Below are positions 5,385-39,124 of a DNA stretch of 64,000 bases, in pieces. The position numbers were made by a program, and so were the translations under genes. The stretch is from a virus. Where the stretch lies: the IMG/VR virus record IMGVR_UViG_3300050821_003720, positions 952-64,951 of that record; one strand, 5' to 3'. The notes beneath the pieces are model-generated. The model worked only from the letters and a program-made list of their open reading frames with translations. It ran no database searches and was not told the DNA's origin. Position 1 is the first letter of the stretch. Every line of letters begins with the position of its first letter.

Positions 5385-6625
5385 TGGAACTGTTCCACAT
5401 AGACTACGAATCTCAGAGTGAAGTTGAAATCGGAGATAAAGGTAATCGTGAAGGCGTAGGCCTTTACAATTACATGCATCATCCGACAACTAAGCCTTTG
5501 ATGCTGGCATACGCTCTTGGTAGTGCCAAGCCCCAATTGTGGGAGATAGCTCAGGGCGAGCCCATGCCCCAATTTGTTCGGGAAAGATTCATGGACCCGA
5601 ATCAATTAATGGCGGCGTGGAATTCTCCTTTTGAACGGGGAATGACTCTTGTGAAACTCGGTATTGATATTCCAATTGAGCGATGGCAGGACCCGCAAGC
5701 TAGTTCTCGATACCTATCATTGACCGGTAAATTGGAAATAGATGGTCAAGTCTTGAATCTTGGGCAAGAATTTGCCAAGGATGAACGTGGTGAAGATTTG
5801 ATTCACCTGTTTAGTCGATTGACGGTTCTGAAAGCTACTAAGAAACGAGAAGCAGCGAGCTTCTTTAATGACTGGAATTCACATCCTAAGGAGTGGCAGG
5901 AATTTGGAGAATATTGTCGTCAAGATATCGTTGCAGAACGAGAAATTATGCGCCGACTTCAACTTTTGGGAGTATTTCCTCTGCCCGAGCGAGAGCGAAG
6001 AATTTGGGTATTTGATCAAAAAGTCAACGACAGAGGGCTTCCAGTCAACATGGAGTTTGTTACTAAAGCATATAAATTAGCCTGTCGAGCTAAAGAAGCG
6101 GCTGTTGAAAATCAGCAACGATTGACTGGTTTAGAAAATGCTAATTCACCGTTGCAAATGCTTGAGTGGGCACAGGGACAGGGTTATAAGCCTAACACAC
6201 TACGTAAAGAACGAGTCACTGCTACATTAAAGTTTGAAAGAGAAGGATTGACGCCATTATGCATTCGAGTTTTAGAAGCACGAGCAGCAGCCAGTTCTAC
6301 AACATATAAGAAACTTGCTGCAATTATTAGACAGGTTTGTCCAGATAATCGTTTACGAAATCAGTTTATTTATTATGGATCGGCACGGTGTGGCCGCTGG
6401 ACAGGAAATGGATTTCAATTTCAAAATTTAGCTCGTCCGGATAAACGATTTGAAGATCAAGATAACGTTAAGAAGGCCCGAGCATTGATTTTTGCCGAAG
6501 ATTATGATGGTATTATTCGAGAGTTCGGCAAGAAGTCAGAAGATAATAACGGTGACGTTGATTACGGTTCAGTTTTGACCGTAGTGAAAAATTTGATCAG
6601 GACGGTTGTCGAGGTCGCTAAGTGA
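5366..6625 (+). CDS. family A DNA polymerase, N-terminal part (3'-5' exonuclease + thumb/fingers up to the TGR..PNLQNIP-like motif)
   Basis: Exo I motif [11 protein letters not shown]. Exo II-like [30 protein letters not shown] matches the TGRLSS..PNLQNIP region. Ends at a TGA stop (6623-6625). Confidence 0.85.
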
Positions 6626-7611
6626 AAACTCGCCTAAACGTTGCGGATTTAGCTGGAATAGAAACTCGGGTTTCCGCTTGGATCGCTGGATGCGAGCCTC
6701 TTTTAGAAGTATTTCGACTGAATCGTGATCCATATTTAGATTTCGCTTCAAAAATGTATCACATACCTTATGAGACATTAGAAGCCGATCTTCATTCAAG
6801 TGATCCTGTCAAGAAAGCCGCAGCGAAGTTCATGCGGCAGATGGCGAAGCCGGGAGTTCTTGCGGCGGTGTATCGTCAAGGTGCCGGTGGAATGGGTAAG
6901 GATAAAAAGACTGGTGATCCTAAGAAATTAGGTTTGTGGGGATATGCCGCAAATATGGGCATTGAGATGACGCTTGAACAGGCCCAAGATATCACTAGAA
7001 TTTTTAGAGAATCTTATCCTGAAATTGTCAGTATGTGGTATGCCTTAGAGATAGTTATTAAGTCTGTTCTGCAAGATCGGCCAATTAAGACTGAAAAGCC
7101 GGATATTATTTTCGCTTTAAATCGATTAAATCAAATCGGAATTAAATTCGACAAGATTGTCATAGATGATAAAGGAAACAAAAGAGTAATTCTTAGAACT
7201 CAATTGCCGTCTGGTCGATATCTTCATTATGTAGATGCTCACATTGATGATATTCGGATGCCCTGGAGTACTGAAGATAATGAAGTTTTCAAACCGGGTC
7301 TGATTTACAGTGGAGTTGATCAAGAAACTAAGCAATGGAAGAATGGAATCGTTAGTCACGGCGGAAAGATATTTGAGAATGATGTGCAAGGAATAGCTAG
7401 AGATATTTTCTGCGACAAGCTTTTAGAGATCGATCAAATTGGTTGCTGGATATGTGGACATGCACACGATGAAGGCATCGGAGAGACTCCCAATGATCCG
7501 TTTTTTCCGGGTTATAGAGAGATGGTTCACATTATGTCACAGCCGGTTAATTGGGCGAAAGATTTACCGTTAGGAGCAGATGGTTTTGAGAGTGAATTTT
7601 ACCATAAGTAG
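6622..7611 (+). CDS. family A DNA polymerase, C-terminal part (motifs A, B, C)
   Basis: GTG start overlapping the upstream stop (TAAGTGA). Motif A VADLAGIETRV at residues 6-16. Motif B KFMRQMAKPGVLAAVYRQGAGGMG. Motif C CGHAHDEG. Confidence 0.85.
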   Translation: MKTRLNVADLAGIETRVSAWIAGCEPLLEVFRLNRDPYLDFASKMYHIPYETLEADLHSSDPVKKAAAKFMRQMAKPGVLAAVYRQGAGGMGKDKKTGDPKKLGLWGYAANMGIEMTLEQAQDITRIFRESYPEIVSMWYALEIVIKSVLQDRPIKTEKPDIIFALNRLNQIGIKFDKIVIDDKGNKRVILRTQLPSGRYLHYVDAHIDDIRMPWSTEDNEVFKPGLIYSGVDQETKQWKNGIVSHGGKIFENDVQGIARDIFCDKLLEIDQIGCWICGHAHDEGIGETPNDPFFPGYREMVHIMSQPVNWAKDLPLGADGFESEFYHK

Positions 7612-7614
7612 AAT

Positions 7615-7953
7615 ATGAAAAATATTCCAATTATTTATTTTATACAATGTGAACAAACGAAATTTATAAAGATAGGAATAACAACTGATTTATCTAGACG
7701 ATTGGAAGTTTTACAAACGGGAAATGCTGAAAAATTAGAAGTTTTAGCAATAATTTCTTATCCCAGGGAGCGAGGACTTTCTAAACTTTGTCCTTTACCA
7801 GATGAGCGAATAGTACGGGCCTATATTACACGTTTAGAACGAGAACTTCATGATAAGTTTTTTAAGTTTCATGTTCGTGGAGAGTGGTTTAAGCCAGAAA
7901 AAGAGTTAACAGATTTTATAAGTGAGAGGAAAGGATGGGTGCCTATAGCGTAG
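7615..7953 (+). CDS. T5orf172/MUG113-domain (GIY-YIG-related) endonuclease-like protein
   Basis: IYFIQCEQTKFIKIGITTDLSRRLEVLQTGN fits the T5orf172 domain pattern. Confidence 0.6.
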   Translation: MKNIPIIYFIQCEQTKFIKIGITTDLSRRLEVLQTGNAEKLEVLAIISYPRERGLSKLCPLPDERIVRAYITRLERELHDKFFKFHVRGEWFKPEKELTDFISERKGWVPIA

Positions 7954-8342: not shown

Positions 8343-8586
8343 TCGTGGTAGAAAACGTGTCTTTGTTCTTGAGAGGATTTTTCCGTTTCTTAAACGATGG
8401 AAAGAGAATCATAAAACGGCTTATTATTCCTGTTTTCGAAAGACTCGTTTCACTAGTCACGGTGCAGCGATGAATGCAATGTGGTTCAAGAAACATCCGG
8501 AAGCACCAGCATTTTCGGCATACAATTGCGAGATTTGCGAGGGTTTCCACATAACAACAGAGAAAGGCAATGAAAGAGAAAGTTAA
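8308..8586 (+). CDS. hypothetical Cys-containing protein (CEICEGFH)
   Basis: ORF tiling between HNH and LAGLIDADG genes. No assignable domain. Confidence 0.3.
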   Translation: MRWDIKLDLTISRGRKRVFVLERIFPFLKRWKENHKTAYYSCFRKTRFTSHGAAMNAMWFKKHPEAPAFSAYNCEICEGFHITTEKGNERES

Positions 8587-8917
8587 AATTGCTTGGGCGG
8601 CAGGTTTGTTTGAAGGCGAGGGAAGCATTGTTCTTATTCAAGAATCTAGGGATAGGCGTCCGTACCCACGTTTACAACTTACAACGACAGATTCAGATGT
8701 GGCATATAAATTTAAACGATATATCAAAGCTGGTTGTATTTATGAGCGAAAGAGGAAAACAGTCACAGGAAAAAGAGTTTTCTTCTGGGTAATTAAATGT
8801 AAATTTGAGGTAAAACGAGTTTTGAAATTATTCATGCCATATTTTGGAGTTAGGAGAAGAAAAAAGGCGAAAGAAGCTTTGAAATTTACAAAATACATGA
8901 TTAGGAGATGGAGATGA
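8570..8917 (+). CDS. LAGLIDADG homing endonuclease (single-motif type)
   Basis: WAAGLFEGEGSI near the N-terminus. Size matches a homodimeric single-motif enzyme. Confidence 0.75.
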   Translation: MKEKVKIAWAAGLFEGEGSIVLIQESRDRRPYPRLQLTTTDSDVAYKFKRYIKAGCIYERKRKTVTGKRVFFWVIKCKFEVKRVLKLFMPYFGVRRRKKAKEALKFTKYMIRRWR

Positions 8918-15066: not shown

Positions 15067-15294
15067 ATGTCCGTGACAGAGCATGAGTTTGAAGTTAGAG
15101 AAATGCACGCTAAACAAGAGGCTGAAGGTCTTGGCGTGATAGGTAAGACAGGCAAGCCTGACCACTGGTTTAATCAACAACTCAAGGAGTGCTTCGCTCG
15201 TGATAAGAAGTCCGGAGCTATTAATTGGCAGCAGACTTTAGAGCTTCGAAAGAAGTTAGTTGCTGGATATGAAAAGAGGAAAGAGCGTGGCTAG
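15067..15294 (+). CDS. hypothetical protein
   Basis: 75 aa ORF in the operon tiling. Confidence 0.35.
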   Translation: MSVTEHEFEVREMHAKQEAEGLGVIGKTGKPDHWFNQQLKECFARDKKSGAINWQQTLELRKKLVAGYEKRKERG

Positions 15295-16063
15295 CCCATT
15301 TACAAATATTGCTATTGGTATAAAAACATTCCTCAGAGATGAGCACTTGTACAACGCTGTGAAGGGAATACTTCATACTCTTCCCGGCGCTCAGATTATC
15401 ATTGCGGATGACGGAAGGATGACTCCTGCTAAGTCTTTATTTTATGCACGGCTTCGGGAATCGGGTCACGTAACGGGATATCTTCCGTATGACTCTGGAT
15501 TTGGTTTTAAGAGTAACTGGATAGTTCAATCTAATACTCGTCCCTATCTTTTAATAGGGTCAGATGATTTTGATTTCACTCAAGATGTCGCTGAAGGAAT
15601 TCTTAAACTGCAAAGCGTATTGGATAACAATCCAGAAATTAGTATAGCAAGTGGTCGAGTTAGAAATCGTTCGTATGAATTTCTTTTAGAGGAAAAGGGT
15701 GGAGTTGTCAAAGAGCATCCTATTGATGTGGATATTAATGGGCGGGGGCAATCGTTTATTGAATGTGATCTGACAGTAAATTACTCCTTAATTAGGAGAG
15801 AAGTTTTCAAGTTTGTCCGATGGGACGATGACGTGAAGATCGGAGGGGGTGAACATGGAAGTTGGTTCTTAGATGTCAAGAGAGCCGGATTTAAAGTGGC
15901 ATATGTACCGGGAGTCAATATAAATGAGCAGAATCGGGCTAGTTCTCAGGAATATAGGAAATATCGTGCTAGAGCTAATTCTCCGGAGCGTCCTTGCTTT
16001 GGGCGAAGAGGTATCAAGTGTTATGTACTTGGAGACGGGAGAGTAGATTATGGCGAGCTGTAA
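15260..16063 (+). CDS. GT-A fold glycosyltransferase (first gene of the glycan island)
   Basis: IAIGIKTF ... AQIIIADDG and GSDDFDF (DxD-like) motifs. Confidence 0.5.
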   Translation: MLDMKRGKSVASPFTNIAIGIKTFLRDEHLYNAVKGILHTLPGAQIIIADDGRMTPAKSLFYARLRESGHVTGYLPYDSGFGFKSNWIVQSNTRPYLLIGSDDFDFTQDVAEGILKLQSVLDNNPEISIASGRVRNRSYEFLLEEKGGVVKEHPIDVDINGRGQSFIECDLTVNYSLIRREVFKFVRWDDDVKIGGGEHGSWFLDVKRAGFKVAYVPGVNINEQNRASSQEYRKYRARANSPERPCFGRRGIKCYVLGDGRVDYGEL

Positions 16064-16277
16064 ATCATATAGAAACCGCTTGAAAGAAATCGCTATGTTA
16101 AGAGAACTTCTTGGTCTTGCTCAACAGGAATTAGATAGTTTAAGTCTTAGAGTTAGATTGTATCGAGAATATATTCTAAAAACTTATCACGACGCCGATT
16201 TTATCGATCTTGTAGATATTCCTAGTTGCTTGAAACCCTTGGATTCAATTAAATATGTCACGAAGAATATTAAATAA
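16050..16277 (+). CDS. hypothetical protein
   Basis: 75 aa ORF. Confidence 0.3.
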   Translation: MASCKSYRNRLKEIAMLRELLGLAQQELDSLSLRVRLYREYILKTYHDADFIDLVDIPSCLKPLDSIKYVTKNIK

Positions 16278-16710
16278 ACTTAATGCTGCTTATCTATCTG
16301 GTTTAATCGATGGAGAAGGATGTATTTTTATAAATAAGAGTAAAGGACATCGAGAGAACTGTGGTAAAAGAGGCTTTACATATCATTCTGGCATCGCTGT
16401 AGCAATGACAAGTTATGAAATGCTTCTGTGGGCTAAAAGAATTACTGGAGTAGGACAAATTAGAACTTATAAAGCTAAAAAGCGCTATAAGCAAGCGTGG
16501 CGCTGGTCGGTTTGGAGTAATGAAGCATCAACTCTCTTGAAAAATTTATTACCATTTTTGAAATTAAAACGTCCGCAAGCTAGAAATCAGATTAAATTTC
16601 AAGAGTTAACAAGATTAACTGGTCGTTTTGGTTATACGAAGAGAGAATGGAAACAACAAACTCGTCTTTATAAAATGAATAAGAAATTAAATAAAAGAGG
16701 ACGACCATGA
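16255..16710 (+). CDS. LAGLIDADG homing endonuclease (single-motif type)
   Basis: LSGLIDGEGCIFI near the N-terminus. Confidence 0.75.
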   Translation: MSRRILNKLNAAYLSGLIDGEGCIFINKSKGHRENCGKRGFTYHSGIAVAMTSYEMLLWAKRITGVGQIRTYKAKKRYKQAWRWSVWSNEASTLLKNLLPFLKLKRPQARNQIKFQELTRLTGRFGYTKREWKQQTRLYKMNKKLNKRGRP

Positions 16711-17702
16711 ATTTAATTATTACTCATCGTTCATGTCCGGACGGCTTCTGTGCATCGTTCATTGCACACAAGAAATATCCTCAAGCTGAAATTCTACCGT
16801 TGAATCATGGCGATCCTTTACCGTTAGATCAGGTTCGAGGAAAAGATATCCTTGTTCTAGATTTTTCGTGGAAGCGTCGAGAAGATAATGAAGCAGTCGC
16901 TCAAGCAGCTAAATCAATATGGATTTTAGATCATCACAAATCGTCACTTGAAGCTTGCCAAGGACTATCGTATGCCACATTTGATATGAACAGAAGTGGC
17001 GCAGGGTTAGCGTGGGACTATCTTTTTGGAAAAGATAGTAACTACGTAGACCCCTATGTAAGACAACGTAATTCTGAAATGGAAAGTACTTATTTGCGTC
17101 ACAGAGGAAATTTTTCACCTAGACCTTGGTATGTTGATTATATCGAAGATTATGATCTTTGGAATCATTATTTAATTTCTACGAAAGAAGTCAATGCATT
17201 TCTTCATTCACTAAACTTCGATTTCGCTGAGTGGGAAGAACTGGATAAAATTACTTATCTGGATGCGGCAGAACGAGGAAAATATGTAGTTCGTAATAAT
17301 GAGCGCTATGTTAAACTGGCTTTAAAACAAGCTTTCACAGGCCAATTAATTATTCCTCAGTCTATTACCGATCCAGAAGGAAAATATTTTTCGTGTGATT
17401 ATTCAATTAAAATTGTTAATTCTTTATATACCTATGCTTCAGAGATCGGAGCCGCTTTAGTTGAGTCTGGTGCTGATATCGGCATGACGTGGTTTGAACG
17501 TGGCGACGGAATGATTCAGTTTAGTCTTCGATCTTTGAAAGGTGGTCCTGTAGATGTTTCTAAAATTGCTTCCATAATAGCACCTGGAGTCGGTGGTGGG
17601 CATCAGTCGGCATCCGGAGCGCCATTACCAATTTATCAGGGGCGAGCATTGATCGACTCGATCTTGAATCGGAAGTGCGGATTGGGAGTAAAGTTTCAGT
17701 GA
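16707..17702 (+). CDS. DHH-family phosphoesterase (NrnA/RecJ-like; possibly oligoribonuclease/pAp phosphatase)
   Basis: HRSCPDGFCASF (H-x-x-PDGD-like motif) and ILDHHKS (DHH motif). Confidence 0.75.
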   Translation: MNLIITHRSCPDGFCASFIAHKKYPQAEILPLNHGDPLPLDQVRGKDILVLDFSWKRREDNEAVAQAAKSIWILDHHKSSLEACQGLSYATFDMNRSGAGLAWDYLFGKDSNYVDPYVRQRNSEMESTYLRHRGNFSPRPWYVDYIEDYDLWNHYLISTKEVNAFLHSLNFDFAEWEELDKITYLDAAERGKYVVRNNERYVKLALKQAFTGQLIIPQSITDPEGKYFSCDYSIKIVNSLYTYASEIGAALVESGADIGMTWFERGDGMIQFSLRSLKGGPVDVSKIASIIAPGVGGGHQSASGAPLPIYQGRALIDSILNRKCGLGVKFQ

Positions 17703-18403
17703 GAACGTTGATAGCAGTTAAATCTTGCCAGGATGATAAACGTTTAGGATGCCATGATACTATTCGACGAACGTGGGGATTTAATACTTTACCAGCAGAT
17801 TTATATTTCTTTCAAGGACGATTTAGCGGATTTGAATGTGGTGTGATAGATAAAGATCGTGATGAAATAACATTGCCGGTTTTAGACGATTATGATCATC
17901 TGCCTTTTAAAACTCGTGAAATTCTTGAGTATTCTTTAAATGCTGGATATGATTTCACATTTCTGTGTGATGTAGACACATTTTTGATTACGTCTAAATT
18001 GTTTAAAACAGGCTACGAAAAGTTTGATTATTCAGGACGGTTCGGTTCTTCACCTAAGATAGGTAGTCAGTTTAAATTTAAAGATGGACGAGGAATTAGA
18101 CATCTTTATTGTCATCCGTGGGCGTCAGGTGGATTTGGTTATTTCTTGTCTCGTAAGGCGGCTCAGATAGTAATCAATACAGAGCCTATCTTTTGGGCAG
18201 AAGATATGTACGTAGGGCAGTGTCTAGGACCGGAAATACAATCAGGTAACGTGACAGCAGTTGATTTGAGAAGATTTGAAAATGAAGCTTCGTGGCATTA
18301 TCCAGCACATCGTTTTGGTTGGAGTAGAGAACGAATGCAGAAATGGATGCGAGAGATGCATGGACTATACAATGATCCGAACCATAAATGGGTTGAGATA
18401 TGA
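17699..18403 (+). CDS. GT31/Fringe-like GT-A glycosyltransferase, paralog 1
   Basis: YDFTFLCDVDTF (DxD). It is a paralog of 23899..24606 and 26204..26866. The GTG start at 17699 was chosen by alignment with the paralog N-termini (MKTLIAV / MKILIAI). Confidence 0.6.
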   Translation: MRTLIAVKSCQDDKRLGCHDTIRRTWGFNTLPADLYFFQGRFSGFECGVIDKDRDEITLPVLDDYDHLPFKTREILEYSLNAGYDFTFLCDVDTFLITSKLFKTGYEKFDYSGRFGSSPKIGSQFKFKDGRGIRHLYCHPWASGGFGYFLSRKAAQIVINTEPIFWAEDMYVGQCLGPEIQSGNVTAVDLRRFENEASWHYPAHRFGWSRERMQKWMREMHGLYNDPNHKWVEI

Positions 18404-19155
18404 TCGCTAGACTTACTGGCGGAATGGGCAACCAGTTGTTCATGTACGCATTCGGAAGATCAGTTGCAGCTATAGCTAACGAGCCTTTGAAGTTTCACTG
18501 GTGTCGTTCAACATGGGATTATGCTCTTGAACCATTTCATCTTCCGATAGTACTAGGCTCTCCTGACGGAACGGAGTCTATATATGAAGAGTCAGGATTC
18601 TTTTACGATTCAAAAATAGCTAATGGAATAATGGTGTCTTCCAGACCTTATCCATGTGAAAGAATTTATTTTCGTGGGTATTGGCAGAGTGAAAAATATT
18701 TCAATGTTGATTTACTTAGAAGAGATTTTGATTGGTGGGTTAACTCCCCTTTGAGAGTACAGTTTAGAAACAAGGCTTTCCTACATGTTCGTCGAGGTGA
18801 CTATTTAAATAGAGGTACCAAAGAATTCCACGGATTGCTTCCATTGGAATATTACCAAGCGGCAGTTGCGTATATTAAAGAGCGTGTTCCCGATATCACT
18901 TTTGAAGTCTTTACAGATGATCCTGATATGCGAGAATTCATGGGTTATCCTGTAGTTTCAACGGGAAATCAGCATTTAGATTTGCATACAATGACGAAGT
19001 ATTCTCATGCAATCTTGGCTAACTCTACGTTTGGGTGGTGGGCGGCATGGTTAGGAGAGCACTCTAGTCAGATTGTCATAGCTCCGAAACAGTGGTTTGC
19101 CGATCCTAAAATTAACACGAGCGATATTGTGCCTGAGCGGTGGGTGAGATTATGA
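18400..19155 (+). CDS. GT11 alpha-1,2-fucosyltransferase (FutC-like)
   Basis: [19 protein letters not shown] and [14 protein letters not shown] ... IVIAPKQW match GT11 signature motifs. Confidence 0.9.
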
Positions 19156-20093
19156 AAAGAGCACTTGTGACCGGTTGTACTGGGCAAGATGGAAGTTATC
19201 TTTGTGAACTTCTATTAGAAAAAGGATATGAAGTTCATGGAATAATTCGTAGATCATCGAGCATCAATACAAATCGTATAGATCACATTTTTAGTGATTT
19301 ACATCTTCATTATGGGGATTTGACCGACTCTAACTCACTTCGAAACATTTTGACGTTATCAAAACCCGATGAAGTTTATAATTTGGGAGCACAGTCGCAT
19401 GTTCGTGTTTCATTTGAAATTCCTATTTATACTTCGATGGCAACTGGTTTAGGTGCTTTAAACTTGTTAGATGCAGTCAAGGATTATGGCAACGCTAAAT
19501 TTTATCAAGCCTCATCGAGTGAATTATTCGGTTCCGCACCTGCACCTCAGTTGGAATCGACACCTTTTCACCCAAGAAGTCCATACGGTATCGCTAAACA
19601 ATTTGCATATTGGAGTACGGTGAACTATCGTGAAGCTTATAATATGTATACTTGTAACGGGATTCTTTTTAATCATGAGTCGCCTCGTCGAGGTGATACG
19701 TTCGTCACGCAGAAAATAGTCAAAGCAGCCGTTCGAATAAAACGAGGGCAACAAGACAAATTATTTCTAGGTAATCTAGAAGCGAAACGAGATTGGGGAT
19801 ATGCTAAAGATTATGTAGAAGCAATGTGGTTAATGCTTCAACAAGATAAACCAGATGATTATGTAATAGCAACAGGTGAAACGCATACGGTGCGTGAATT
19901 TGCTGAAGAAGTATTTAGATTACTTGATTTACCTTGGATTTATGTGTACATCGATCCTAAATATTATCGTCCTGCTGAAGTAGATATTTTGCTTGGAGAT
20001 GCCTCAAAAGCAAAACGACAGTTAGGGTGGAATCCTAAAGTGAAATTCAAAGAACTTGTCAGAATCATGGTCAATGCGGAGTTAGCAAAATGA
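19152..20093 (+). CDS. gmd: GDP-mannose 4,6-dehydratase
   Basis: [36 protein letters not shown] ... [11 protein letters not shown]; near-collinear with GMD. Confidence 0.9.
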
Positions 20094-20674
20094 CAGCCCA
20101 AGAATTGATCGACTTCGAGAAAGAGATAGCCAATCTATATAACCAGAAGAAAATTCCAGCCGTGATTCATCTAGCGAGTGGCGGCGAGGAAGAACTTATC
20201 AATATCTTTAAGGAAATTAAACGAAACGATTGGGTACTCGGTAGTTGGCGGTCACACTATCATTGCCTTTTGAAGGGTGTTCCACGAGAACAATTAAAAC
20301 AGAGCATCATTGACGGACACTCAATCGCCTTATGTTTTCCTGAGTATCGTATATTATGCTCTGGTATTTTTGGCGGCGTGCTTCCGATTGCTGTTGGATT
20401 AGCTATGGGAATTAAACGAACTGGAGAACGTTCTACAGTACATTGTTTTATGGGGGACATGACAGCTGAAAGTGGTATAGCTTACGAGTGTGTACAATAC
20501 TCACAAGGTCATGAACTTCCTATACGGTTTTATGTCGAAGATAACGGTTTATCGGTTTGTACTAAAACTCAAGATGTGTGGGGAACATCTTGGGATACGG
20601 CATTGGTAAAAAGATACTCATATGAACCGGGACGCTACCCGCACGCCGGTTCTGGAGTAAGGGTGCCATTTTAA
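20090..20674 (+). CDS. TPP-dependent dehydrogenase E1 alpha-like subunit (short form)
   Basis: HLASGGEE ... [11 protein letters not shown] and [34 protein letters not shown] resemble the E1-alpha TPP-binding region. Confidence 0.5.
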
Positions 20675-21210
20675 TGAGATACCAAGAAGCTTTAACTCAG
20701 GCCATGAATTATCTGGGTCAAGATCAACGGACAATCTTTATCGGTCAAGCTGTGGCGGTCCCAGGAACAATAATGTCCCCTACATTAGTCACCGTTCCTG
20801 CTGAAAAGAAAATTGAATTACCCGTGGCCGAAGAGATGCAGATGGGGATGTCTCTAGGCTTAGCCTTGAATAAATTTATTCCAGTTTCTATTTATCCGAG
20901 ATGGAACTTTATGCTTCTGGCAATAGGACAGCTTGTTAATCACCTGGATAAGATCAAGGAAATGTCAAGTGGTGGATATAAACCAAAGGTGATCATCCGT
21001 ACCGGAATCGGAGCTAAGAAGCCTGTAAACCCGCAGTGTCAGCATTTAGGAGACTTTACAGAGGCTTTCCGGATGATGCTGACTAATATCCAGGTAATCC
21101 GACTAGACGAGCCTGAGGACGTTCTACCAGCTTATCAGAGGGCACTGCAACGGGAAGATGGGAAGAGTACAATCTTGGTAGAGTGGGGAGATTTCTATCA
21201 TGAGAAATAA
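20674..21210 (+). CDS. TPP-dependent enzyme E1 beta/transketolase pyrimidine-domain-like subunit (short form)
   Basis: Adjacent to and coupled with the E1-alpha-like gene. GQDQRTIFIGQAV ... is a weak E1-beta-like pattern. Confidence 0.4.
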   Translation: MRYQEALTQAMNYLGQDQRTIFIGQAVAVPGTIMSPTLVTVPAEKKIELPVAEEMQMGMSLGLALNKFIPVSIYPRWNFMLLAIGQLVNHLDKIKEMSSGGYKPKVIIRTGIGAKKPVNPQCQHLGDFTEAFRMMLTNIQVIRLDEPEDVLPAYQRALQREDGKSTILVEWGDFYHEK

Positions 21211-22198
21211 AATGAGTCTAACTAACTGCGATGCTTTTGATGTTGCGCACTCTGTGGATTTCAGTTCTCTTGATGGAGCAAGAGTAACGATTTCTGGTGT
21301 GACTGGTTTGTTAGGTACGCATTTTCTGGCGTCATTATGCTTAGCTAAAGAAATCTACAATCTTAATTTAGATGTTGTAGGAGTCTGCCACTCAAAACCT
21401 GCAGATTATACTACAGCTTTGGCTGAGCGTGGAAGTTTTAAACTACAATCATATGCTCCACGAAAATCTGATTTGATAATTCATGCAGCAGGATACGCTC
21501 AGCCATCTGTTTTTCTTGCTAACCCGGCTGAAACAATCAAACTTAATACTGAATTAACACACGATCTTTTGCAGAGTTTAGAAAAAAGTGGCAGATTTTT
21601 ATTTATTAGTTCCAGCGAAGTTTATAGCGGACTGACTGGCGTGGTTGATGAGTCGCAAATCGGATTAACAAATCCTTATCACCCCCGGTCCTGCTACATC
21701 GAGGGCAAGCGCTGCGGAGAAGCCATTTGTAATGCATATTATCAGGCTGGAGTGAAAGCTAAATCAGCTAGACTATCCTTAGCTTATGGACCAGGAACTA
21801 GACGTGATGATAAACGAGCCATGAGTCAATTTATTAATCAGGCTCTATCGACGGGTATAATTAGCATGAATTATTTAGGAAGAGAGCAGCGTACGTTTTG
21901 TTATATAAGAGACGCTATAGAAACTTTGTGGCAAATTTGTTTACACGGCAAAGAACAAGTATATAATGTTGGTTCTCCTATGACGGCTAGTATGTTTGAT
22001 GTGGTTCGATTGATAGCTAAGATAACTGGAGCCAAAGTTTTAATTCATCATGAAGCTGAAGAACTTGTTGGTTCTCCTGAGGGTACGGTGATGGATATCA
22101 GTTTAGCGGAAAAAGAATTCAGTAAGGGTTCTTACATAAGTTTAGAGCAGGGTTTAATACGTACAATCAAGTGGCATGAGGCTCTTTATGCCGTTTAA
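21200..22198 (+). CDS. NAD-dependent sugar epimerase/reductase (SDR; candidate GDP-4-keto-6-deoxymannose epimerase/reductase)
   Basis: Rossmann GVTGLLGTHF and YxxxK (YIEGKRCGE). Confidence 0.7.
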   Translation: MRNKMSLTNCDAFDVAHSVDFSSLDGARVTISGVTGLLGTHFLASLCLAKEIYNLNLDVVGVCHSKPADYTTALAERGSFKLQSYAPRKSDLIIHAAGYAQPSVFLANPAETIKLNTELTHDLLQSLEKSGRFLFISSSEVYSGLTGVVDESQIGLTNPYHPRSCYIEGKRCGEAICNAYYQAGVKAKSARLSLAYGPGTRRDDKRAMSQFINQALSTGIISMNYLGREQRTFCYIRDAIETLWQICLHGKEQVYNVGSPMTASMFDVVRLIAKITGAKVLIHHEAEELVGSPEGTVMDISLAEKEFSKGSYISLEQGLIRTIKWHEALYAV

Positions 22199-22736
22199 AA
22201 TTGTTGAAGAATATTTCCAGGGCGAAGTTAAAGTCATCTCGTCTCAGCCAGTCTTGGAAGACAAGAGAGGATTTTTCGGTGTAGAATATCGTTCAGACGA
22301 ATTCTGGAGACTAGGTTTGCCTTCGTCCTTCGTCCAAGACAACCGTTCATCATCTGTTAAAGGAACCATCCGAGGGTTACATTTTCAACCCGAGATGGGA
22401 AAGTTGATGAAGGTTACTAAGGGCATAGCGTGGTTTGTCTCTGTAGACCTACGGCAATCGTCACCGACATTTTTAGATTGGCAAAGTACGTTAGTGTCGG
22501 CTGAGAATCGTGTACAGGTTTGGGCACCGTGGTATTTTGCTCGTGGTTTCGCCGCTTTGACGGATATCGAAATAGAGTACAAATGCACACAGTTATTCGA
22601 TCCGGCTAAAGACTACGGAATTTGTTGGAATGATAAATTTATAGACGTAAGATGGCCTATTAAGCATCCGATTGTTTCTGTAAAAGACGATAACGGTCCA
22701 ACTGTTCTTCAATTTAGGGAGAAATTGCCTCGATGA
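22188..22736 (+). CDS. RmlC-like cupin sugar-nucleotide 3,5-epimerase
   Basis: FFGVEYRSDEF ... KGTIRGLHFQ ... KLMKVTKGIAWFVSVDLR. Confidence 0.65.
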   Translation: MPFKIVEEYFQGEVKVISSQPVLEDKRGFFGVEYRSDEFWRLGLPSSFVQDNRSSSVKGTIRGLHFQPEMGKLMKVTKGIAWFVSVDLRQSSPTFLDWQSTLVSAENRVQVWAPWYFARGFAALTDIEIEYKCTQLFDPAKDYGICWNDKFIDVRWPIKHPIVSVKDDNGPTVLQFREKLPR

Positions 22737-23902
22737 GAAAAATTACTTTAGGTTATTTGAACATCAGTAAACAAGGAAAGCGCTATGTAAATGAGGCTCT
22801 TAATGAAAACCGACTTAGTCGGGGACGGTTCACGGATCGTTTTGAACAAGATTTCGCTCAATTACATCAAGTTAAACATGCTTTGTTCTGTAACAGTGGA
22901 ACATCGGCTTTACAAATCGCTTTAGCTGCATTGAAAGAAGTCTATGGATACAAAGATGGCGACGAGGTGATCGTTCCGGCCACGACATTTATCGCTACGT
23001 CAAATATAGTTCTCCAGAATAATCTTAAGCCAGTCTTCGTAGATGTCGATCCTGAAACCTATAATATCGATCCATATAAAATTTCCAAAGCTATCACTGA
23101 TCGAACTCGGTGTATCCTACCGGTTCACTTGTTTGGTTTGCCAGCAGATATGTACAACATAATGATTCAAGCTAAGTCTCATGGATTGCAAGTTCTTGAG
23201 GATTCTTGCGAAACTATGTTTGCATCTCAGAACAGTAAATCCGTTGGAAGTTTTGGAGACTTAGCTTGTTTCAGTACTTATGTTGCTCATTTGATTGTCG
23301 GTGGAGTCGGCGGCATTGTGACTACATCGAATGCTAAACTATACGACATATGCCGCAGCCTAATGAATCATGGTCGCAGCACAGACTACATCACAATAGA
23401 CGATGATGATAATCCTGCGGATATTTCAGACATGGTTGAACGTCGATATCAATTCGACCGAGTGGGTTACTCTTATAGAGCAACAGAATTGGAAGCAGCT
23501 ATCGCTCTATCTGAATTAGAAAATTATGAAATAAATATCAACCGACGCAGAAAAAATGCCACGCTGTTAACTAATCTTCTTAAAGACGTAAATTGGTTAC
23601 AACTTCCAAAAATTCCAAACAACATGACGCACTCTTTTATGATGTATCCGATAGTCGTTAAGTCTCATACAAAGACACGAAACGATTTTCTTATTTACCT
23701 AGAACGAAATGGAGTCGAGACGAGATACATGTTTCCTCTGTTGAGTCAACCCGTTTATCAGAAATTGTTTCCACGTGAGGAATCTAAACACTATCAAGCA
23801 GAGGGATTGGCTGAAAGAGGATTCTTTATCGGTATTCATCAAGGCTTGACAGACGAAGATATTCAGTATGTAGCTAAGGTGATCAAGGATTATCAGAAAT
23901 GA
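22733..23902 (+). CDS. DegT/DnrJ/EryC1-family PLP-dependent sugar aminotransferase (or 3-dehydratase)
   Basis: FCNSGTSALQIALAAL and the overall DegT fold pattern. Confidence 0.85.
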   Translation: MRKITLGYLNISKQGKRYVNEALNENRLSRGRFTDRFEQDFAQLHQVKHALFCNSGTSALQIALAALKEVYGYKDGDEVIVPATTFIATSNIVLQNNLKPVFVDVDPETYNIDPYKISKAITDRTRCILPVHLFGLPADMYNIMIQAKSHGLQVLEDSCETMFASQNSKSVGSFGDLACFSTYVAHLIVGGVGGIVTTSNAKLYDICRSLMNHGRSTDYITIDDDDNPADISDMVERRYQFDRVGYSYRATELEAAIALSELENYEININRRRKNATLLTNLLKDVNWLQLPKIPNNMTHSFMMYPIVVKSHTKTRNDFLIYLERNGVETRYMFPLLSQPVYQKLFPREESKHYQAEGLAERGFFIGIHQGLTDEDIQYVAKVIKDYQK

Positions 23903-24606
23903 AAACCTTGATAGCTGTTTTGTCTTACGACGGAGACGCAGGCAACGGTAGTCATGACGTTATCCGAGAAACGTGGGGCAAAGATGTCGCAGCAGCTGGT
24001 GCCGAATTACGTTTCTTTGTTGGTCGGCGTGGACCGGAGTTCTGTCCTAAGCGAGACGAAACCTGCATTCCGTGGCAACAGAATAGAACATGCAATCATC
24101 CATTTTTTCATTCACAAGAAGGATGTTGTGAAGATTTCTGGCAATTCTTGACTAAAGAAATTATCCGATGGGGTTTAAATCGAGCTTACGACTTTACATT
24201 TTTGTGTGAAAATGATACATTCCTGATACCACAAAAGTTGATGCAGTCAGGATTTGAAAAGTTCGATTTCTGTGGATCATTCCGTCCTGTGGGAATTCCC
24301 CTAGGAACCAAAACTCCGTATGAAATTTACGGACATCCTCTCTATGCTTGGCCTGATCCTGGGGTTGGTTATTTTGTTTCTGAAAAAGCAGCACGAGTAA
24401 TATCTAATGCTAGACTCGATCATTGGTCTGTTGGTATGTATGCTGGTCAAGTCTTAGGACCCGGTATAGAGCTAGGTGAAATTAAAGCGATGAATTTTCC
24501 CGAAGATATCTCATGGCACTATCGAGAAGTCAAGGGAAAGGGCTACACAACTCCGCTTCGTGAAGGGCATCAGTGGATGCGGGAGATGTACCGAAATGCA
24601 AAATGA
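23899..24606 (+). CDS. GT31/Fringe-like GT-A glycosyltransferase, paralog 2
   Basis: YDFTFLCENDTF. Paralogous to 17699..18403 and 26204..26866. Shares a C-terminal WHY..QWMREM motif with paralog 1. Confidence 0.6.
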   Translation: MKTLIAVLSYDGDAGNGSHDVIRETWGKDVAAAGAELRFFVGRRGPEFCPKRDETCIPWQQNRTCNHPFFHSQEGCCEDFWQFLTKEIIRWGLNRAYDFTFLCENDTFLIPQKLMQSGFEKFDFCGSFRPVGIPLGTKTPYEIYGHPLYAWPDPGVGYFVSEKAARVISNARLDHWSVGMYAGQVLGPGIELGEIKAMNFPEDISWHYREVKGKGYTTPLREGHQWMREMYRNAK

Positions 24607-25438
24607 CGCTGGATATACACCTGTTATCTACGCTAACTATGATGTTAAGTTGCCTAATCTGAATTGGCAATGCTCTGTTTCTGTAGACATTTTTAATTTC
24701 TCTGATACGACTCCTTATAAAGTGTTCTGGCAGATGGAACCTGATGAAATTATACCCGGCACTGAAGAGAAACTGATCAAGAATCATAAATTTTATGATC
24801 TGATTTTGACTTGGAATCACATGGTACTGAGCGAATGCGGTAACGCTCGATTCTTTGCTCCAGGTTCGGTATGGACTCAGGAAGCCGATGTAAGTCAGAA
24901 GAAATTCGCCATATCTTATTTGACAAGTTCTAAGACCGGTTGTCCTGGCTATGAGTTGCGGCACAGAATATTCAGAGGACTTCCGCCGTCCATCAATAGA
25001 ATTCCAATAACGAAACATCAATCACCGCCATATCTTCTTAATAAACGAGAAATGTTGGTACCATTCCAATATACTATCGTGATTGAAAATGCTTACCGGC
25101 ACAATTACTTTACTGAGAAATTGTTAGATGCATTTGCAACTAAGACGATTCCGATTTATTGGGGTTGCCCTCGATCCTTTGATAAGGATGGAGTAGGCGA
25201 ATTTTTTAATACGGACGGCGTGATAGCCATTAAAGATTATAAAGACCTTTTTCAAGTTATCGCTTCATTGACACCAGACTTCTACCAATCTCGACAAACT
25301 GTGATAGAAGAAAACTATAAAAAGAGCTTGACATATGTAGATAGAACTGGTAATCTAGTCAAAGCGATCAATGCTTCGTGGACTCCCACGATCATGAGGG
25401 TCCATAGCGGAGAACCGAATGTCGCTCCCGAAAGTTAG
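24596..25438 (+). CDS. GT10 alpha-1,3(/4)-fucosyltransferase
   Basis: FQYTIVIENAYRHNYFTEKL matches the GT10 FxxxFENSxxxxYxTEK motif. Start set at ATG 24596; the track ORF starts at 24560. Confidence 0.8.
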   Translation: MQNDAGYTPVIYANYDVKLPNLNWQCSVSVDIFNFSDTTPYKVFWQMEPDEIIPGTEEKLIKNHKFYDLILTWNHMVLSECGNARFFAPGSVWTQEADVSQKKFAISYLTSSKTGCPGYELRHRIFRGLPPSINRIPITKHQSPPYLLNKREMLVPFQYTIVIENAYRHNYFTEKLLDAFATKTIPIYWGCPRSFDKDGVGEFFNTDGVIAIKDYKDLFQVIASLTPDFYQSRQTVIEENYKKSLTYVDRTGNLVKAINASWTPTIMRVHSGEPNVAPES

Positions 25439-26207
25439 CCTCGTTTGTCCGACTTATAATCGGGCACGCTACATGCCTATAGTTCTGAGATGTTTTACTC
25501 AACAGACTTACTCAAATGTAGAATTGATTATTGTGGACGATGGCGAACAAACTTTATCCCTGCCAGCAGATGATCGCATTAAATATTATAAACTGGAAAA
25601 AAGAACACCCACCGGCACAAAAAGAAATATCGGAGCGGATATAGCCACTGGAGAAATCGTGGCGAATTTGGATGATGATGATTGGAGTTCGCCACATAGG
25701 ATTGAGGAACAAGTTGAACGTCTTGCTTTTACCGGTAAAGCTGTCACAGGCTATAATGTTACAATTTCTTATGATGAAGCAACTGGATTGTTTTATAGGA
25801 ATCAAGGTGGACCACCTTATTTAGCATCCGGTACAAGTCAATGTTATTTGAAGTCGTGGTGGGAAAAACACCCATTTCTAGATGTAACTTATGGAGAAGA
25901 TAGCGTATTCGCTAGAGAAGCGAGATTAGCTGATCAGTTAGCTATTGCGGACCCTGGTAAAATGATGGTCGCCAGAAAACATGCTAACAATACCGATTAT
26001 GTACAAATTAAATGGCTCAAATCGTGGTCAAGAGAAAATATAGCTCTAGAATTTTTCAAGGCTATTCATAACCCTAGACCATCTTTAGACTACATATGGG
26101 AAAAACACGATTGTACTCGTGAGTGTGCTATCGATGCTGAATCTCGTTTCAGAGCACCTATCGTAGAATATAAGACACAGTGGATTCCGGAGATTAAAAC
26201 CCAATGA
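25419..26207 (+). CDS. GT2 glycosyltransferase
   Basis: VSLVCPTYNRARY ... ELIIVDDG ... DDDD. Confidence 0.8.
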   Translation: MSLPKVSLVCPTYNRARYMPIVLRCFTQQTYSNVELIIVDDGEQTLSLPADDRIKYYKLEKRTPTGTKRNIGADIATGEIVANLDDDDWSSPHRIEEQVERLAFTGKAVTGYNVTISYDEATGLFYRNQGGPPYLASGTSQCYLKSWWEKHPFLDVTYGEDSVFAREARLADQLAIADPGKMMVARKHANNTDYVQIKWLKSWSRENIALEFFKAIHNPRPSLDYIWEKHDCTRECAIDAESRFRAPIVEYKTQWIPEIKTQ

Positions 26208-26866
26208 AGATTTTAATAGCTATTGAAAGCTGTGCAGCAAATAGAAACTTGCATCAGGCTATGCTTGACACGTGGCTTGGTGCTTTGTCTATTATGGACG
26301 TAGATTGTCGTTTCTTCATTGGCGGATTGAGTGAGCCTAAAAATCATCTTGAAGTATGGGTTCCTTGTTTAGACACGTATGATAATTTAGCTGTTAAGAC
26401 CAGAGGAATTTGTCGATGGGCTGCAGCTAACAATTATGATTTTCTTTTCAAATGTGACACAGACACGGTCGCTAATCCAAAGCGTCTCCTAGAAAGTGGA
26501 TTCGAATCGTTTTATTATATGGGCGCATTTAATGAAGACATTCTTCCAGTAAGTTTGAATAGCACTCTACCTCAATTTAAAGGTCAGAAGATTCAATTTG
26601 CTAGCGGTGGAGCTGGTTATTGGTTAAATCAGCGAGCTATGATTACCGTCGCAAACGGCTTAGTCGCATCGTCTCCGGCTGAAGATGTCTATGTAGCTGG
26701 AGTGTTACATCAAAATATGCGTCCTGTTTGGAACGAAGGTTATCGCTGGCGACCAGGATCGAAGATTAAAGGTGCCACGACTTTTCACCTATCTAGCGCC
26801 CTTCAAGTGAAATACCGTCCGGAATTGATGTATGAATATTATCAAAAAATAATGCTTGACAAATAA
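26204..26866 (+). CDS. GT31/Fringe-like GT-A glycosyltransferase, paralog 3
   Basis: YDFLFKCDTDTV ... GGAGYW. N-terminus MKILIAIESC is parallel to the other paralogs. Confidence 0.55.
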   Translation: MKILIAIESCAANRNLHQAMLDTWLGALSIMDVDCRFFIGGLSEPKNHLEVWVPCLDTYDNLAVKTRGICRWAAANNYDFLFKCDTDTVANPKRLLESGFESFYYMGAFNEDILPVSLNSTLPQFKGQKIQFASGGAGYWLNQRAMITVANGLVASSPAEDVYVAGVLHQNMRPVWNEGYRWRPGSKIKGATTFHLSSALQVKYRPELMYEYYQKIMLDK

Positions 26867-35522: not shown

Positions 35523-36164
35523 ATGAAAACTATCCTACTGACAATAATCATGTTGTTCGGAGCTTCCCTGCTGGCGCAAACACCGCCGCTCCCCGATTTC
35601 TACGGTGTGCCTCATTTGCAAGAGGCGCTGCAAAATGCCGAAGCACGGTATCAAGCTGGTGGTCCAGGCGTGACTGAAGAAGAAATCGTCACCTTTCATA
35701 ACCACTTGGTTGAGATACTCGGTATGCCGGAGTATGCTAAGCTAAGCCAAGAGCAATTGCGAACCAGCCGTATGTATCTTTCACCTATGAAGGTGTTCGG
35801 TGATCTAACACCAAAGTCTGGAGAAAATCCCAATGAAGTTACGCATATCCTCTCCCCGATGGCGGCAGCGTATCTGGAAGATCACATGATTCTTCAGAAA
35901 CGTTTTAACCCTGGCTATCAAATGGCTCCTGGTGAGTGGACTACACAAAAGCTATGGGAGCACCGTCAATTGGCACATACTGATCAAATTGAAGGCAAAG
36001 ATAGTGGTGTCAGCCGTACAAGTGAAATTCATAAGATTTTGCGAGCCAAAAAAGGATTGACCAATATCGAGGCGGCTAAATTGCTATACTATTTGACCGA
36101 AACATTCAAACTATCAGACACAGATGCGGCTAAAATCGCAGTAGCTGCCCTGGAGGGACAATGA
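35523..36164 (+). CDS. secreted protein (N-terminal signal peptide)
   Basis: MKTILLTIIMLFGASLLAQTPP signal-peptide-like N-terminus. SD GAGGAAA. Confidence 0.5.
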   Translation: MKTILLTIIMLFGASLLAQTPPLPDFYGVPHLQEALQNAEARYQAGGPGVTEEEIVTFHNHLVEILGMPEYAKLSQEQLRTSRMYLSPMKVFGDLTPKSGENPNEVTHILSPMAAAYLEDHMILQKRFNPGYQMAPGEWTTQKLWEHRQLAHTDQIEGKDSGVSRTSEIHKILRAKKGLTNIEAAKLLYYLTETFKLSDTDAAKIAVAALEGQ

Positions 36165-39087: not shown

Positions 39088-39089
39088 AC

Positions 39090-39118
39090 TTGACAAGCTA
39101 TCTAGAGCGTGCTATTCT
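39090..39118 (+). promoter_or_regulatory. sigma70-like promoter of the repeated family upstream of the integrase gene (AAAATAAAC-TTGACA-17nt-TATTCT)
   Basis: TTGACA 39090-39095 and TATTCT 39113-39118. ATG 39125 follows. Confidence 0.5.
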
Positions 39119-39124
39119 TTGTTT

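Follow-up and report, generated by a model that had tools for sequence, protein, structure and literature searches.

Why would a phage carry an 11.6-kb block of sugar-nucleotide and glycosyltransferase (GT) genes, which sugar would these make, and on what would the glycan be placed? This question is raised by a 64,000-nucleotide stretch of an uncultivated virus (IMG/VR record IMGVR_UViG_3300050821_003720, positions 952 to 64,951; hereafter "the window"), in which positions 15260-26866 encode seven GTs, four deoxy-sugar enzymes and an unusual two-subunit thiamine enzyme (Table 1). The explanation that best accounts for the whole is a resident glycan island that would produce a branched GDP-3,6-dideoxyhexose and, as a guess, attach it within a glycan on a virion protein, a composite reading to which we give slightly less than an even chance.

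The island comprises sixteen open reading frames (ORFs), all on the plus strand, with every junction overlapping by 1-47 nt. A preliminary description of this DNA had presented it as a contiguous, translationally coupled plus-strand block; the block is indeed contiguous as read from its ORFs, and coupling could extend across it. Profile, structure and motif evidence bears out the gene content listed there, namely a GDP-mannose 4,6-dehydratase (GMD), a short-chain dehydrogenase/reductase (SDR), an RmlC-like epimerase, a DegT-family enzyme, a split E1 and seven GTs. All of the named families are supported, although the list had passed over three ORFs without a glycan role, i.e. a 75-aa ORF, a LAGLIDADG homing endonuclease and a DHH phosphoesterase. 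Promoter and terminator scans stayed at the level of shuffled controls and are uninformative on independent expression.

That the block is phage-borne is likewise upheld, by syntenic relatives and phage flanks and, in L009 as the closest relative, by terminase and portal genes beside a shared capsid gene. The opposite, a host O-antigen fragment misassembled onto a phage contig, is suggested solely by genes that look cellular. We found no data in support of this idea and for practical purposes dismiss it, as the abrupt composition break that the preliminary description had named as a sign of chimeric assembly is absent at both 15260 and 26866. Neither GC content nor tetranucleotide usage changes abruptly at these borders, and tetranucleotide frequencies of the island correlate with those of the upstream phage genes (r = 0.94) as closely as in any intra-phage comparison. 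The island adjoins the replication genes without a gap, and both borders are crossed by overlapping start and stop codons. Three independent assemblies, L001 (Logan, 66 kb), L089 (IMG/VR, 109 kb) and L106 (ENA long-read, 107 kb), show this gene order with identical phage genes on both sides, and the core order GMD/E1-alpha/E1-beta/SDR/RmlC is repeated on a 2.5-kb stretch fetched from L008, an 18.4-kb Logan contig. In a megablast search of the block against 50,697 GenBank phages, the single match was a 118-bp GMD fragment.

The first two steps of the predicted sugar pathway rest on strong homology. GMD would convert host GDP-mannose to GDP-4-keto-6-deoxymannose, and the DegT-family protein would then strip the 3-hydroxyl to leave the 4-keto-3,6-dideoxy form. 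The best curated match of the latter, RfbH, is a CDP-sugar 3-dehydrase, and in an alignment to its top PDB match, GDP-perosamine synthase (3bn1), the Schiff-base Lys186 (FSFFGNK) is replaced by histidine (FSTYVAH). This histidine is kept in all lineage homologues and is found again in 26%-identical DegT proteins that adjoin homologues of the thiamine enzyme in a Verrucomicrobiae metagenome-assembled genome (MAG) and in another viral contig. Histidine in place of the lysine that binds pyridoxal phosphate (His188 in ColD, His220 in the dehydratase E1) marks pyridoxamine phosphate (PMP)-dependent 3-dehydratases and not aminotransferases. By its sequence, the window DegT is thus a 3-dehydratase, and the lack of a C-x-C iron-sulfur motif makes it ColD-like. 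A perosamine-type amino sugar was rejected on account of the same lysine-to-histidine replacement, so that the amino-deoxy sugar offered as a product by the preliminary description is unlikely.

GDP-fucose, also offered there, is not the predicted product because the block has no homologue of GDP-fucose synthase (Fcl/ColC) and its SDR resembles UXS and dTDP-glucose dehydratases instead. The best PDB match of the SDR is a UDP-glucuronate decarboxylase (3e-27), and it scores 28 bits on the Fcl model against a cut-off of 500, leaving no ColC/Fcl-family enzyme in the window. The PDB matches of the RmlC-like protein include GDP-heptose epimerases, which share its fold. What holds of the earlier claim is that a GDP-mannose-derived deoxy-sugar pathway is encoded, for which a branched deoxy sugar is a reasonable product.

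The branching activity would reside in the two genes between those for GMD and the SDR. They do encode a two-subunit thiamine-dependent E1-like enzyme, as previously described, in a truncated "mini" form in which both subunits are about half the size of their normal E1 counterparts, alpha without its C-terminal part and beta without its C-domain. The alpha subunit matches positions 3-170 of the 300-position E1_dh profile and keeps the GD-x28-N Mg/diphosphate motif, and its AlphaFold2 model aligns with human pyruvate dehydrogenase (PDH) E1-alpha at a root-mean-square deviation of 2.2 Å over 175 columns, about 40% of the target. The beta subunit covers positions 5-162 of the 327 in the PDH E1-beta profile, lacks the transketolase-C domain and, in alignments to 1ik6 and 1um9_B, keeps the cofactor-activating glutamate of P-x-x-E. 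The thiamine diphosphate site therefore appears intact across separate E1-alpha-like and E1-beta-like subunits. In dehydrogenase complexes the missing regions serve the lipoyl-E2 partner, and their absence fits a stand-alone decarboxylase or carboligase.

This mini-E1 belongs to a large family (3167 database matches) that corresponds to PHROG 34187, a 405-position profile of "unknown function" spanning both halves. The cyanophage P-TIM68 carries a homologue as one fused gene (gp190) within a sugar cluster, and another homologue is present in the cyanophage S-SM2. Across IMG/VR, 271 contigs have a relative of the alpha subunit, and we counted neighbouring genes in 80 loci fetched from these. 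The beta subunit was found in 75 of the 80 and a DegT ORF in 45, at most 6.3 kb away (median 1.5 kb); among untruncated loci the latter proportion was 30 of 44. Every one of the 45 DegT proteins was of the histidine type and none of the lysine type. The same pairing occurs in bacterial clusters. The two genes are often accompanied by those for a GHMP kinase, a B12-radical-SAM enzyme and an SDR, for instance in the Verrucomicrobiae MAG and in L112, a T4-like phage contig (Gp23, UvsW) that bears a mini-E1 sugar module.

To our knowledge, the yersiniose/erwiniose route is the sole established case in which a 3-dehydratase is coupled to a thiamine enzyme. In that route, YerE or ErwE attaches a thiamine-dependent acyl branch to C4 of an NDP-4-keto-3,6-dideoxyhexose, after which a reductase acts (PMC9306805). 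E1-alpha/beta-like proteins, AviB1/B2 and Pau11/12, have also been proposed as branching enzymes in two antibiotic pathways (PMC4425429). Given these precedents and the linkage to 3-dehydratase-type DegT proteins, we propose a C4-branching sequence. The mini-E1 would decarboxylate a 2-keto acid, probably pyruvate, and add the acyl-anion equivalent to the C4 ketone by YerE or AviB1/B2 chemistry; the RmlC-like enzyme would invert C5, and the SDR would reduce the remaining ketone. The product would probably be a C4-acyl-branched GDP-3,6-dideoxy-L-hexose, more precisely a GDP-linked 3,6-dideoxy-4-C-(1-hydroxyalkyl)-L-hexose, i.e. a branched colitose-like sugar. The GT11 and GT10 enzymes would transfer GDP-sugars of this type, while the GT12-like, GT2 and three GT31 enzymes would build the underlying chain from host UDP-sugars. 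Transcribed together with the replication genes, the island would be active in lytic growth.

A simpler pathway, which we consider possible but less probable, would dispense with branching: GMD, the ColD-type enzyme, RmlC and the SDR would yield an unbranched 3,6-dideoxy-L-hexose (colitose or an epimer), and the thiamine enzyme would serve otherwise, e.g. by supplying an acyl group or electrons from pyruvate. Two relatives, L089 and L096, manage without E1-alpha/beta, and both subunits in the window lack regions of full-length AviB1/Pau11-type enzymes. Nor is the SDR demonstrably a side-chain reductase. On the other side, the consistent linkage of mini-E1 to 3-dehydratase-type DegT proteins mirrors the relationship of YerE to its substrate, the window DegT has no iron-sulfur motif that would call for an electron donor, and the SDR and RmlC genes diverge together with the presence of E1. 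We had also entertained the E1 pair as electron donor to an iron-sulfur dehydratase of the E1 type, and dropped it because DegT lacks the cysteine motif.

Several observations weigh against the branching sequence itself. The SDR resembles UXS more than known side-chain ketoreductases, and our literature searches for a characterised mini-E1, including in O-antigen clusters, returned no paper. In one locus (L107), mini-E1 accompanies GMD and an Fcl-like enzyme with no DegT visible, from which it follows that a 3-deoxy substrate is not obligatory and that the acceptor of mini-E1 may be any 4-keto sugar. A NUMOD3 ORF (6955-7446) directly follows the mini-E1-beta gene in the same locus. A broader version of the branching proposal, in which mini-E1 and His-type DegT form an unrecognised module for C-acyl branching of NDP-3-deoxy-4-keto sugars, convergent with YerE and spread over hundreds of viral contigs, cultured cyanophages and bacterial clusters, is more speculative and in our view less likely than not. 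Here the branched sugar would cap a virion-attached oligosaccharide, its chain built by GT31, GT12-like, GT11 and GT10 enzymes (with GT6 in a relative), families typical of animal blood-group and glycolipid synthesis, and phages that are otherwise nearly identical would exchange their glycan coats module by module.

All seven GTs of the island are supported by sequence comparison, as a GT12-like GT-A enzyme, a GT11, a GT10, a GT2 and three GT31 paralogues. The upstream GT-A protein gave no match in a Pfam search, and its homologues are confined to island-bearing relatives; a profile built from it and three of these homologues from the lineage finds human B4GALNT1 (GT12), over the catalytic GT-A domain, with an E value of 9e-10. 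The GT11 and GT10 proteins score 65 and 28.9 bits on their family hidden Markov models (cut-offs 23.9), and their HVRRGDY and ENAYRHNYFTEK sequences, the latter fitting the pattern EN-x6-Y-x-TEK, are motifs of the GDP-fucose family. The GT2 has a faint GtrB-like PHROG match (2e-4). The first GT31 paralogue is the most widely kept GT of the island among relatives, and its AlphaFold2 model (pLDDT 93.8) has human B3GNT2, B3GalT6, C1GalT1 and Manic Fringe as top Foldseek matches (E to 1.8e-12), a model-based result that confirms the GT31 assignment. Of the other two, the second has no Pfam match of its own and lacks the ED motif, and the third falls just under the Galactosyl_T cut-off (1.6e-4). 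No hydrophobic or transmembrane segment was detected in any of the seven GTs (maximum Kyte-Doolittle mean over 19 residues below 1.2), so assembly would be cytoplasmic.

The GT31-like family has 113 matches, all on contigs of at most 117 kb and none on long bacterial contigs, and tblastn against the 50,697 GenBank phages returned nothing. It appears, from this distribution, to have diversified within these phages, and its restriction to contigs of this size argues for a role of the phage's own and not for recent capture of a host lipopolysaccharide gene. One relative (L106) has a gene of the ABO/alpha-Gal family GT6 (6488-7234) between its GT31 and GT11 genes, which means that every GT family behind animal ABH/Lewis-type glycans is represented in the lineage.

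Table 1. Predicted genes of the glycan island at 15260-26866 of the window, in order of position.
Feature	Position	Strand	Evidence
GT-A fold GT (GT12/GT2-like), upstream arm	15260..16063	+	weak TIGR04440; DDG, SDDFD motifs
75-aa ORF, not a glycan gene	16050..16277	+	Pfam: no match; homologues in L001, L089
Free-standing LAGLIDADG homing endonuclease	16255..16710	+	LAGLIDADG_1 2.7e-8, above cut-off
DHH/DHHA1 phosphoesterase	16707..17702	+	phrog_4771 2e-59; weak DHH, DHHA1 matches
GT31-like paralogue 1	17675..18403	+	Galactosyl_T (PF01762) 2.3e-5, above cut-off; DVD, EDMY motifs
GT11 alpha-1,2-fucosyltransferase-family protein (GDP-sugar donor)	18400..19155	+	Glyco_transf_11 8e-18; phrog_2644 2e-30; HVRRGDY
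GDP-mannose 4,6-dehydratase (GMD)	19140..20093	+	PF16363 1e-134; TIGR01472 498 bits, cut-off 415
Mini E1-alpha, thiamine-diphosphate PP domain only, 194 aa	20090..20674	+	E1_dh 1e-15; phrog_34187 N-half
Mini E1-beta, Pyr domain only, 178 aa	20674..21210	+	Transket_pyr 7e-10; phrog_34187 C-half
Extended SDR, UXS/dTDP-glucose-dehydratase-like, candidate ketoreductase	21200..22198	+	Epimerase 1e-33; GxxGxxG, YxxxK
RmlC-like cupin 3,5-epimerase	22176..22736	+	dTDP_sugar_isom 1.7e-45; TIGR01221 above cut-off
DegT-family PMP-dependent 3-dehydratase (ColD/E1 type)	22733..23902	+	DegT 1e-96; top NCBIfam RfbH
GT31-like paralogue 2	23899..24606	+	36% identity to 17675-18403, E 1e-42
GT10 alpha-1,3-fucosyltransferase-family protein (GDP-sugar donor)	24560..25438	+	Glyco_transf_10 C-terminal domain 1.1e-6; ENAYRHNYFTEK motif
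GT2 glycosyltransferase	25419..26207	+	Glycos_transf_2 9e-22
GT31-like paralogue 3	26204..26866	+	33% identity to 17675-18403, E 1e-24; DTD, EDVY motifs

Comparison with related phages indicates that the island is a long-resident, variable accessory region of an uncultivated tailed-phage lineage. Using the DHH gene as an anchor, we fetched 14 related loci and mapped the window proteins onto them. The helicase, nuclease and DHH genes were present in all fetched relatives, while the flanks of DHH varied. Because DHH was found in 14 of 14, whether or not glycan genes accompany it, it is by this comparison a backbone gene that splits the island into two sides, and the island accordingly sits on both of its flanks. 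Glycan genes are absent from five relatives. L094 has a single GT31-like gene and nothing else of the island, and four others have GT-A, GT31 and GT11 genes only, with a GT2 match in two of the four. L090 adds GMD and an Fcl-like SDR, a GDP-fucose-type set, and L096 combines GMD, an Fcl-like SDR and DegT in a canonical colitose-type set, the SDRs of these two scoring about 284 bits on the Fcl model. GMD, DegT, RmlC and SDR without E1-alpha/beta make up the set of L089, to which the window, L001 and L106 add E1-alpha/beta; the same cassette with E1-alpha/beta is present in L004, where flanking backbone genes were not detected.

Such hypervariability between close relatives is O-antigen-like. 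The capsid protein of L089 is 99% identical to that of the window and most of its island genes are about 70-90% identical, and precisely two have diverged, the SDR (49%) and RmlC (45%), between flanking genes that keep 80-90% identity. By this pattern, E1-alpha/beta, SDR and RmlC look like a unit that travels together by cassette exchange. Between its DegT and GT31/GT10 genes, L089 also has a 216-aa ORF (16487-17137) and an additional GT31 paralogue that are absent from the window. The LAGLIDADG gene is a clean insertion of about 450 bp between the small ORF and DHH, the junction being empty in L001 and L089.

What the glycan would be attached to is less clear, and a virion protein is our slightly favoured best guess, by analogy and still short of an even probability. 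We favour it because seven GTs together with a private sugar point to the de novo construction of an entire glycan, because the core GT31 family seems phage-specific, because the island genes sit in a lytic-cycle array, and because the sugar module is also found in the T4-like contig L112, T4-like phages being virulent. Virus-encoded glycosylation of a capsid is known from the chlorovirus PBCV-1. In mycobacteriophages, glycans occur on capsids and tail tubes (Freeman et al. 2023, as cited in PMC12619734). The same guess is burdened by the fact that no structural gene co-varies with the island, all of them being kept in island-less relatives, and that none of the island GTs can be named as one that initiates on a polypeptide; in addition, the tyrosine integrase leaves room for conversion of the host surface. 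The fibre-like proteins at 50063-56142, put forward as acceptors by the preliminary description for being extremely N/S/T-rich, have an ordinary composition (19-21% S+T, 7% N) and are conserved in an island-less relative.

Conversion of the host surface comes next, and we regard it as somewhat less likely than a virion acceptor. The pathway and GTs would then decorate a lipid-linked host glycan (O-antigen, lipooligosaccharide, capsule or S-layer) during infection or in a lysogen, which would block superinfection or keep progeny from sticking to debris, a seroconversion in the broad sense. The integrase (38912-40048), the faint GtrB-like match of the GT2 and the O-antigen-like variability of the island are all compatible with this, and an endolysin combining GH108 and PG_binding_3 domains suggests, from general knowledge of this domain pair, a Gram-negative host. 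GT10 and GT11 enzymes and sugars of the colitose or yersiniose type are classic in O-antigens (PMC4753412), and the authors who described similar cyanophage clusters prefer such a role for them (PMC9602691). Against it, scanning of the window ORFs found no Wzx, Wzy, ligase, initiating phosphoglycosyltransferase or Gtr-type membrane protein, and the island is not built like a conversion module of the Gtr/Oac type (membrane-embedded GtrA/GtrB/GtrC or an acyltransferase beside the integrase or att site). The seven GTs have no transmembrane segment, and for the core GT31 family there are no close homologues of cellular origin. Unlike a separately expressed moron, the island is translationally coupled to the replication genes around it and lies 12 kb away from the integrase, and the capsid gene reveals no prophage in 185,579 reference genomes. 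Known converting phages use one to three genes, which seven GTs far exceed. The lysogenic serotype conversion envisaged earlier thus retains the integrase in its favour and is weakened by the position of the island and by the occurrence of the module in a T4-like contig.

The location among replication and nucleotide genes (helicase, PD-(D/E)XK nuclease, DHH, ThyX, dCMP deaminase) would also suit a third acceptor, DNA, with the GTs building a glycan on a hydroxylated pyrimidine against restriction, as in systems that glycosylate 5-hydroxymethylcytosine or 5-hydroxycytosine (5hmC/5hoC). There are documented cases of phages that glycosylate their DNA through GT-A enzymes acting in sequence, with partner sugar enzymes (bioRxiv 10.1101/2023.12.21.572611; PMC13326640). 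We nevertheless consider this improbable. A scan of the ORFs of the 64-kb window, all but about ten short ones, found no TET/JBP-type 5mYOX, no ThyA-family hydroxymethylase or hydroxylase and no C5-methyltransferase, and such enzymes are also absent from the next 10 kb upstream, as read from a contig whose genes are identical. ThyX and dCMP deaminase fit an ordinary supply of dTMP, the GT31 fold points to the extension of glycans and not to transfer onto DNA, and a branched DNA adduct on the scale of a heptasaccharide has no known precedent.

The remainder of the window is that of a tailed bacteriophage. Upstream of the island, a plus-strand array encodes a Prim-Pol/helicase, a split family-A DNA polymerase (5366-6625 and 6622-7611), a UvrD-type helicase and a PD-(D/E)XK nuclease. 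A nucleotide-metabolism cluster at 2261-5384 comprises ThyX, a YpsA/SLOG-DprA-like protein, a dCMP deaminase, a 155-aa ORF and a GMP-reductase/IMPDH-like protein, with no ThyA-type enzyme. Two further ORFs resemble homing endonucleases, one with a T5orf172/MUG113 match just after the polymerase (7615-7953) and one with a faint LAGLIDADG match in Pfam (8570-8917), and the lineage seems rich in such genes. Downstream of the island are the GH108 + PG_binding_3 endolysin, a domain pair that points to a Gram-negative host, an SLT-domain protein and the tyrosine integrase. Between the endolysin and the SLT-domain protein, a 487-aa protein (36161-37624) with two C-terminal DUF5648 repeats may be wall-binding or lysis-associated.

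The minus-strand structural block (42314-63837) has almost no matches in Pfam and PHROGs, and only weak ones, and phage identity was therefore settled through relatives. A putative major head protein (61583-62548, minus strand), itself a weak major-head match, has more than 110 IMG/VR relatives on contigs of up to 117 kb, with identities of 75-99% over 80 IMG/VR loci and 78-99% over twelve relatives compared. Neighbouring structural genes are mostly 30-60% identical across these twelve, except in the near-identical L009, so that conservation of the capsid gene is unusually high by comparison with the other virion genes. Just past the position corresponding to the end of the window, L009 has terminase (TerL, phrog_38, 1.6e-39) and portal (6e-22) genes beside a 99%-identical capsid gene. 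With terminase, portal, capsid, replication and lysis genes all recognised by sequence, the virus is a member of the Caudoviricetes. A tblastn search with a 418-aa structural protein against the GenBank phages returned nothing.

The search for a host gave few leads, and no tRNA genes were found. The sole capsid match in the reference genomes is L103 (CABMCB010000038.1), a 36.7-kb contig in a MAG labelled "uncultured archaeon LFW-28", and a GT31-like homologue on a 99.9-kb contig is also labelled "uncultured archaeon"; both are probably phage contigs mis-binned into archaeal MAGs. Another contig (L007/L189; ENA ERZ27253736 k141_237635, 85,761 bp) encodes E1-beta and primase proteins identical to those of the window at a constant offset, position 1 of the window being position 31,671 of that record. 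It would end at about window position 54,090, and the window must therefore derive from a different assembly of this phage or from one that is circularly permuted. Upstream of the window, this contig encodes DNA ligase, endonuclease VII, RNase H-like and RNase T-like proteins.

These results give a protein family of "unknown function" a concrete candidate reaction, the thiamine-dependent C-branching of a GDP-3,6-dideoxy-4-ketohexose, with defined partner enzymes; if this is true, mini-E1 would represent a third, non-homologous route to branched sugars. The lineage forms a natural series, from no glycan genes through fucose-type and colitose-type to branched sets behind a near-constant capsid, that is ideal for asking what phage glycans are for. 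Should the acceptor be the virion, shielding by glycans would prove to be widespread among environmental phages, and should it be the host envelope, the island would be the most elaborate conversion module known. Large glycan clusters are also extended from T4-like cyanophages of about 190-200 kb to mid-sized, integrase-bearing phages (about 65-117 kb).

Among known systems, the colitose pathway (GMD, ColD and ColC in Escherichia coli O55/O111 and Yersinia pseudotuberculosis, among others) is close to the predicted one. Both share GMD, a His-type DegT 3-dehydratase, the GDP-4-keto-6-deoxymannose scaffold and transfer by GTs of fucosyltransferase families. The window differs in having an RmlC-like epimerase and a UXS-like SDR instead of ColC, and a thiamine enzyme between GMD and the SDR. 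Yersiniose, erwiniose and caryophyllose synthesis (YerE/ErwE with YerF/ErwF; PMC9306805) follows the same predicted logic of a PMP-dependent 3-dehydratase, an acyl branch at C4 and a reductase. However, YerE, a flavoprotein that resembles acetolactate synthase, consists of a single chain and uses CDP-sugars, whereas the window encodes a two-subunit, half-length enzyme of the PDH-E1 type, with GDP as the carrier implied by GMD. The block holds no ORF of the acetolactate-synthase-like YerE family, E1_dh plus Transket_pyr being its sole thiamine enzyme, and no CDP-glucose enzymes (CDP activation, Ddh). The resemblance to YerE is one of analogy and not homology. AviB1/AviB2 of avilamycin and Pau11/Pau12 of paulomycin are alpha/beta E1-like proteins in deoxysugar clusters that would place a two-carbon branch on a 4-keto sugar (PMC4425429). 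They belong to actinomycete secondary metabolism and act on dTDP-sugars or glycosides, and Pau11/Pau12 are full-length (325/345 aa; PMC4425429), in contrast to the phage subunits of 194/178 aa, which form a separate widespread family.

Phage glycan clusters of this size have precedents, and the description of such gene content as atypical for a bacteriophage was overstated. The T4-like cyanophages S-SCSM1, S-SM2 and P-TIM68 carry lipopolysaccharide-like clusters of nucleotide-sugar enzymes and GTs resembling the island, with mini-E1 in those of P-TIM68 and S-SM2. The S-SCSM1 cluster encodes GMD, GDP-fucose synthase, GDP-mannose 3,5-epimerase, three fucosyltransferases and five other GTs (PMC9602691). 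Unlike S-SM2 and P-TIM68, which are cyanomyoviruses of about 190-200 kb, the window derives from a mid-sized phage with an integrase; its island relies on GTs of the GT31 and GT12 types together with a ColD-type dehydratase, and its modules differ from one close relative to the next. In virion glycosylation by PBCV-1 and mycobacteriophages, soluble virus-encoded GTs (with GMD in PBCV-1) assemble an oligosaccharide on structural proteins within the cytoplasm; the GT families and the predicted sugar of the window are different. DNA hypermodification systems (Pyle et al., bioRxiv 10.1101/2023.12.21.572611; Lee et al., PMC13326640) share sequential GT-A and sugar-nucleotide enzymes near replication genes, and adjoin a 5mYOX/TET enzyme or ThyA homologue of which none was found in the scanned window ORFs. 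Taken together, large phage glycan clusters are already known and the island extends them. What would be new, judging by gene content, is the predicted sugar chemistry of a ColD-type dehydratase and mini-E1 on a GDP scaffold, which stands outside the colitose, yersiniose and AviB systems, in each case on one defining feature. Also new are the GT repertoire (three GT31, GT12-like, GT11 and GT10 enzymes, with GT6 in a relative, all free of membrane anchors) and the way in which the island varies module by module, much as O-antigen loci do, between phages whose capsids are nearly identical.

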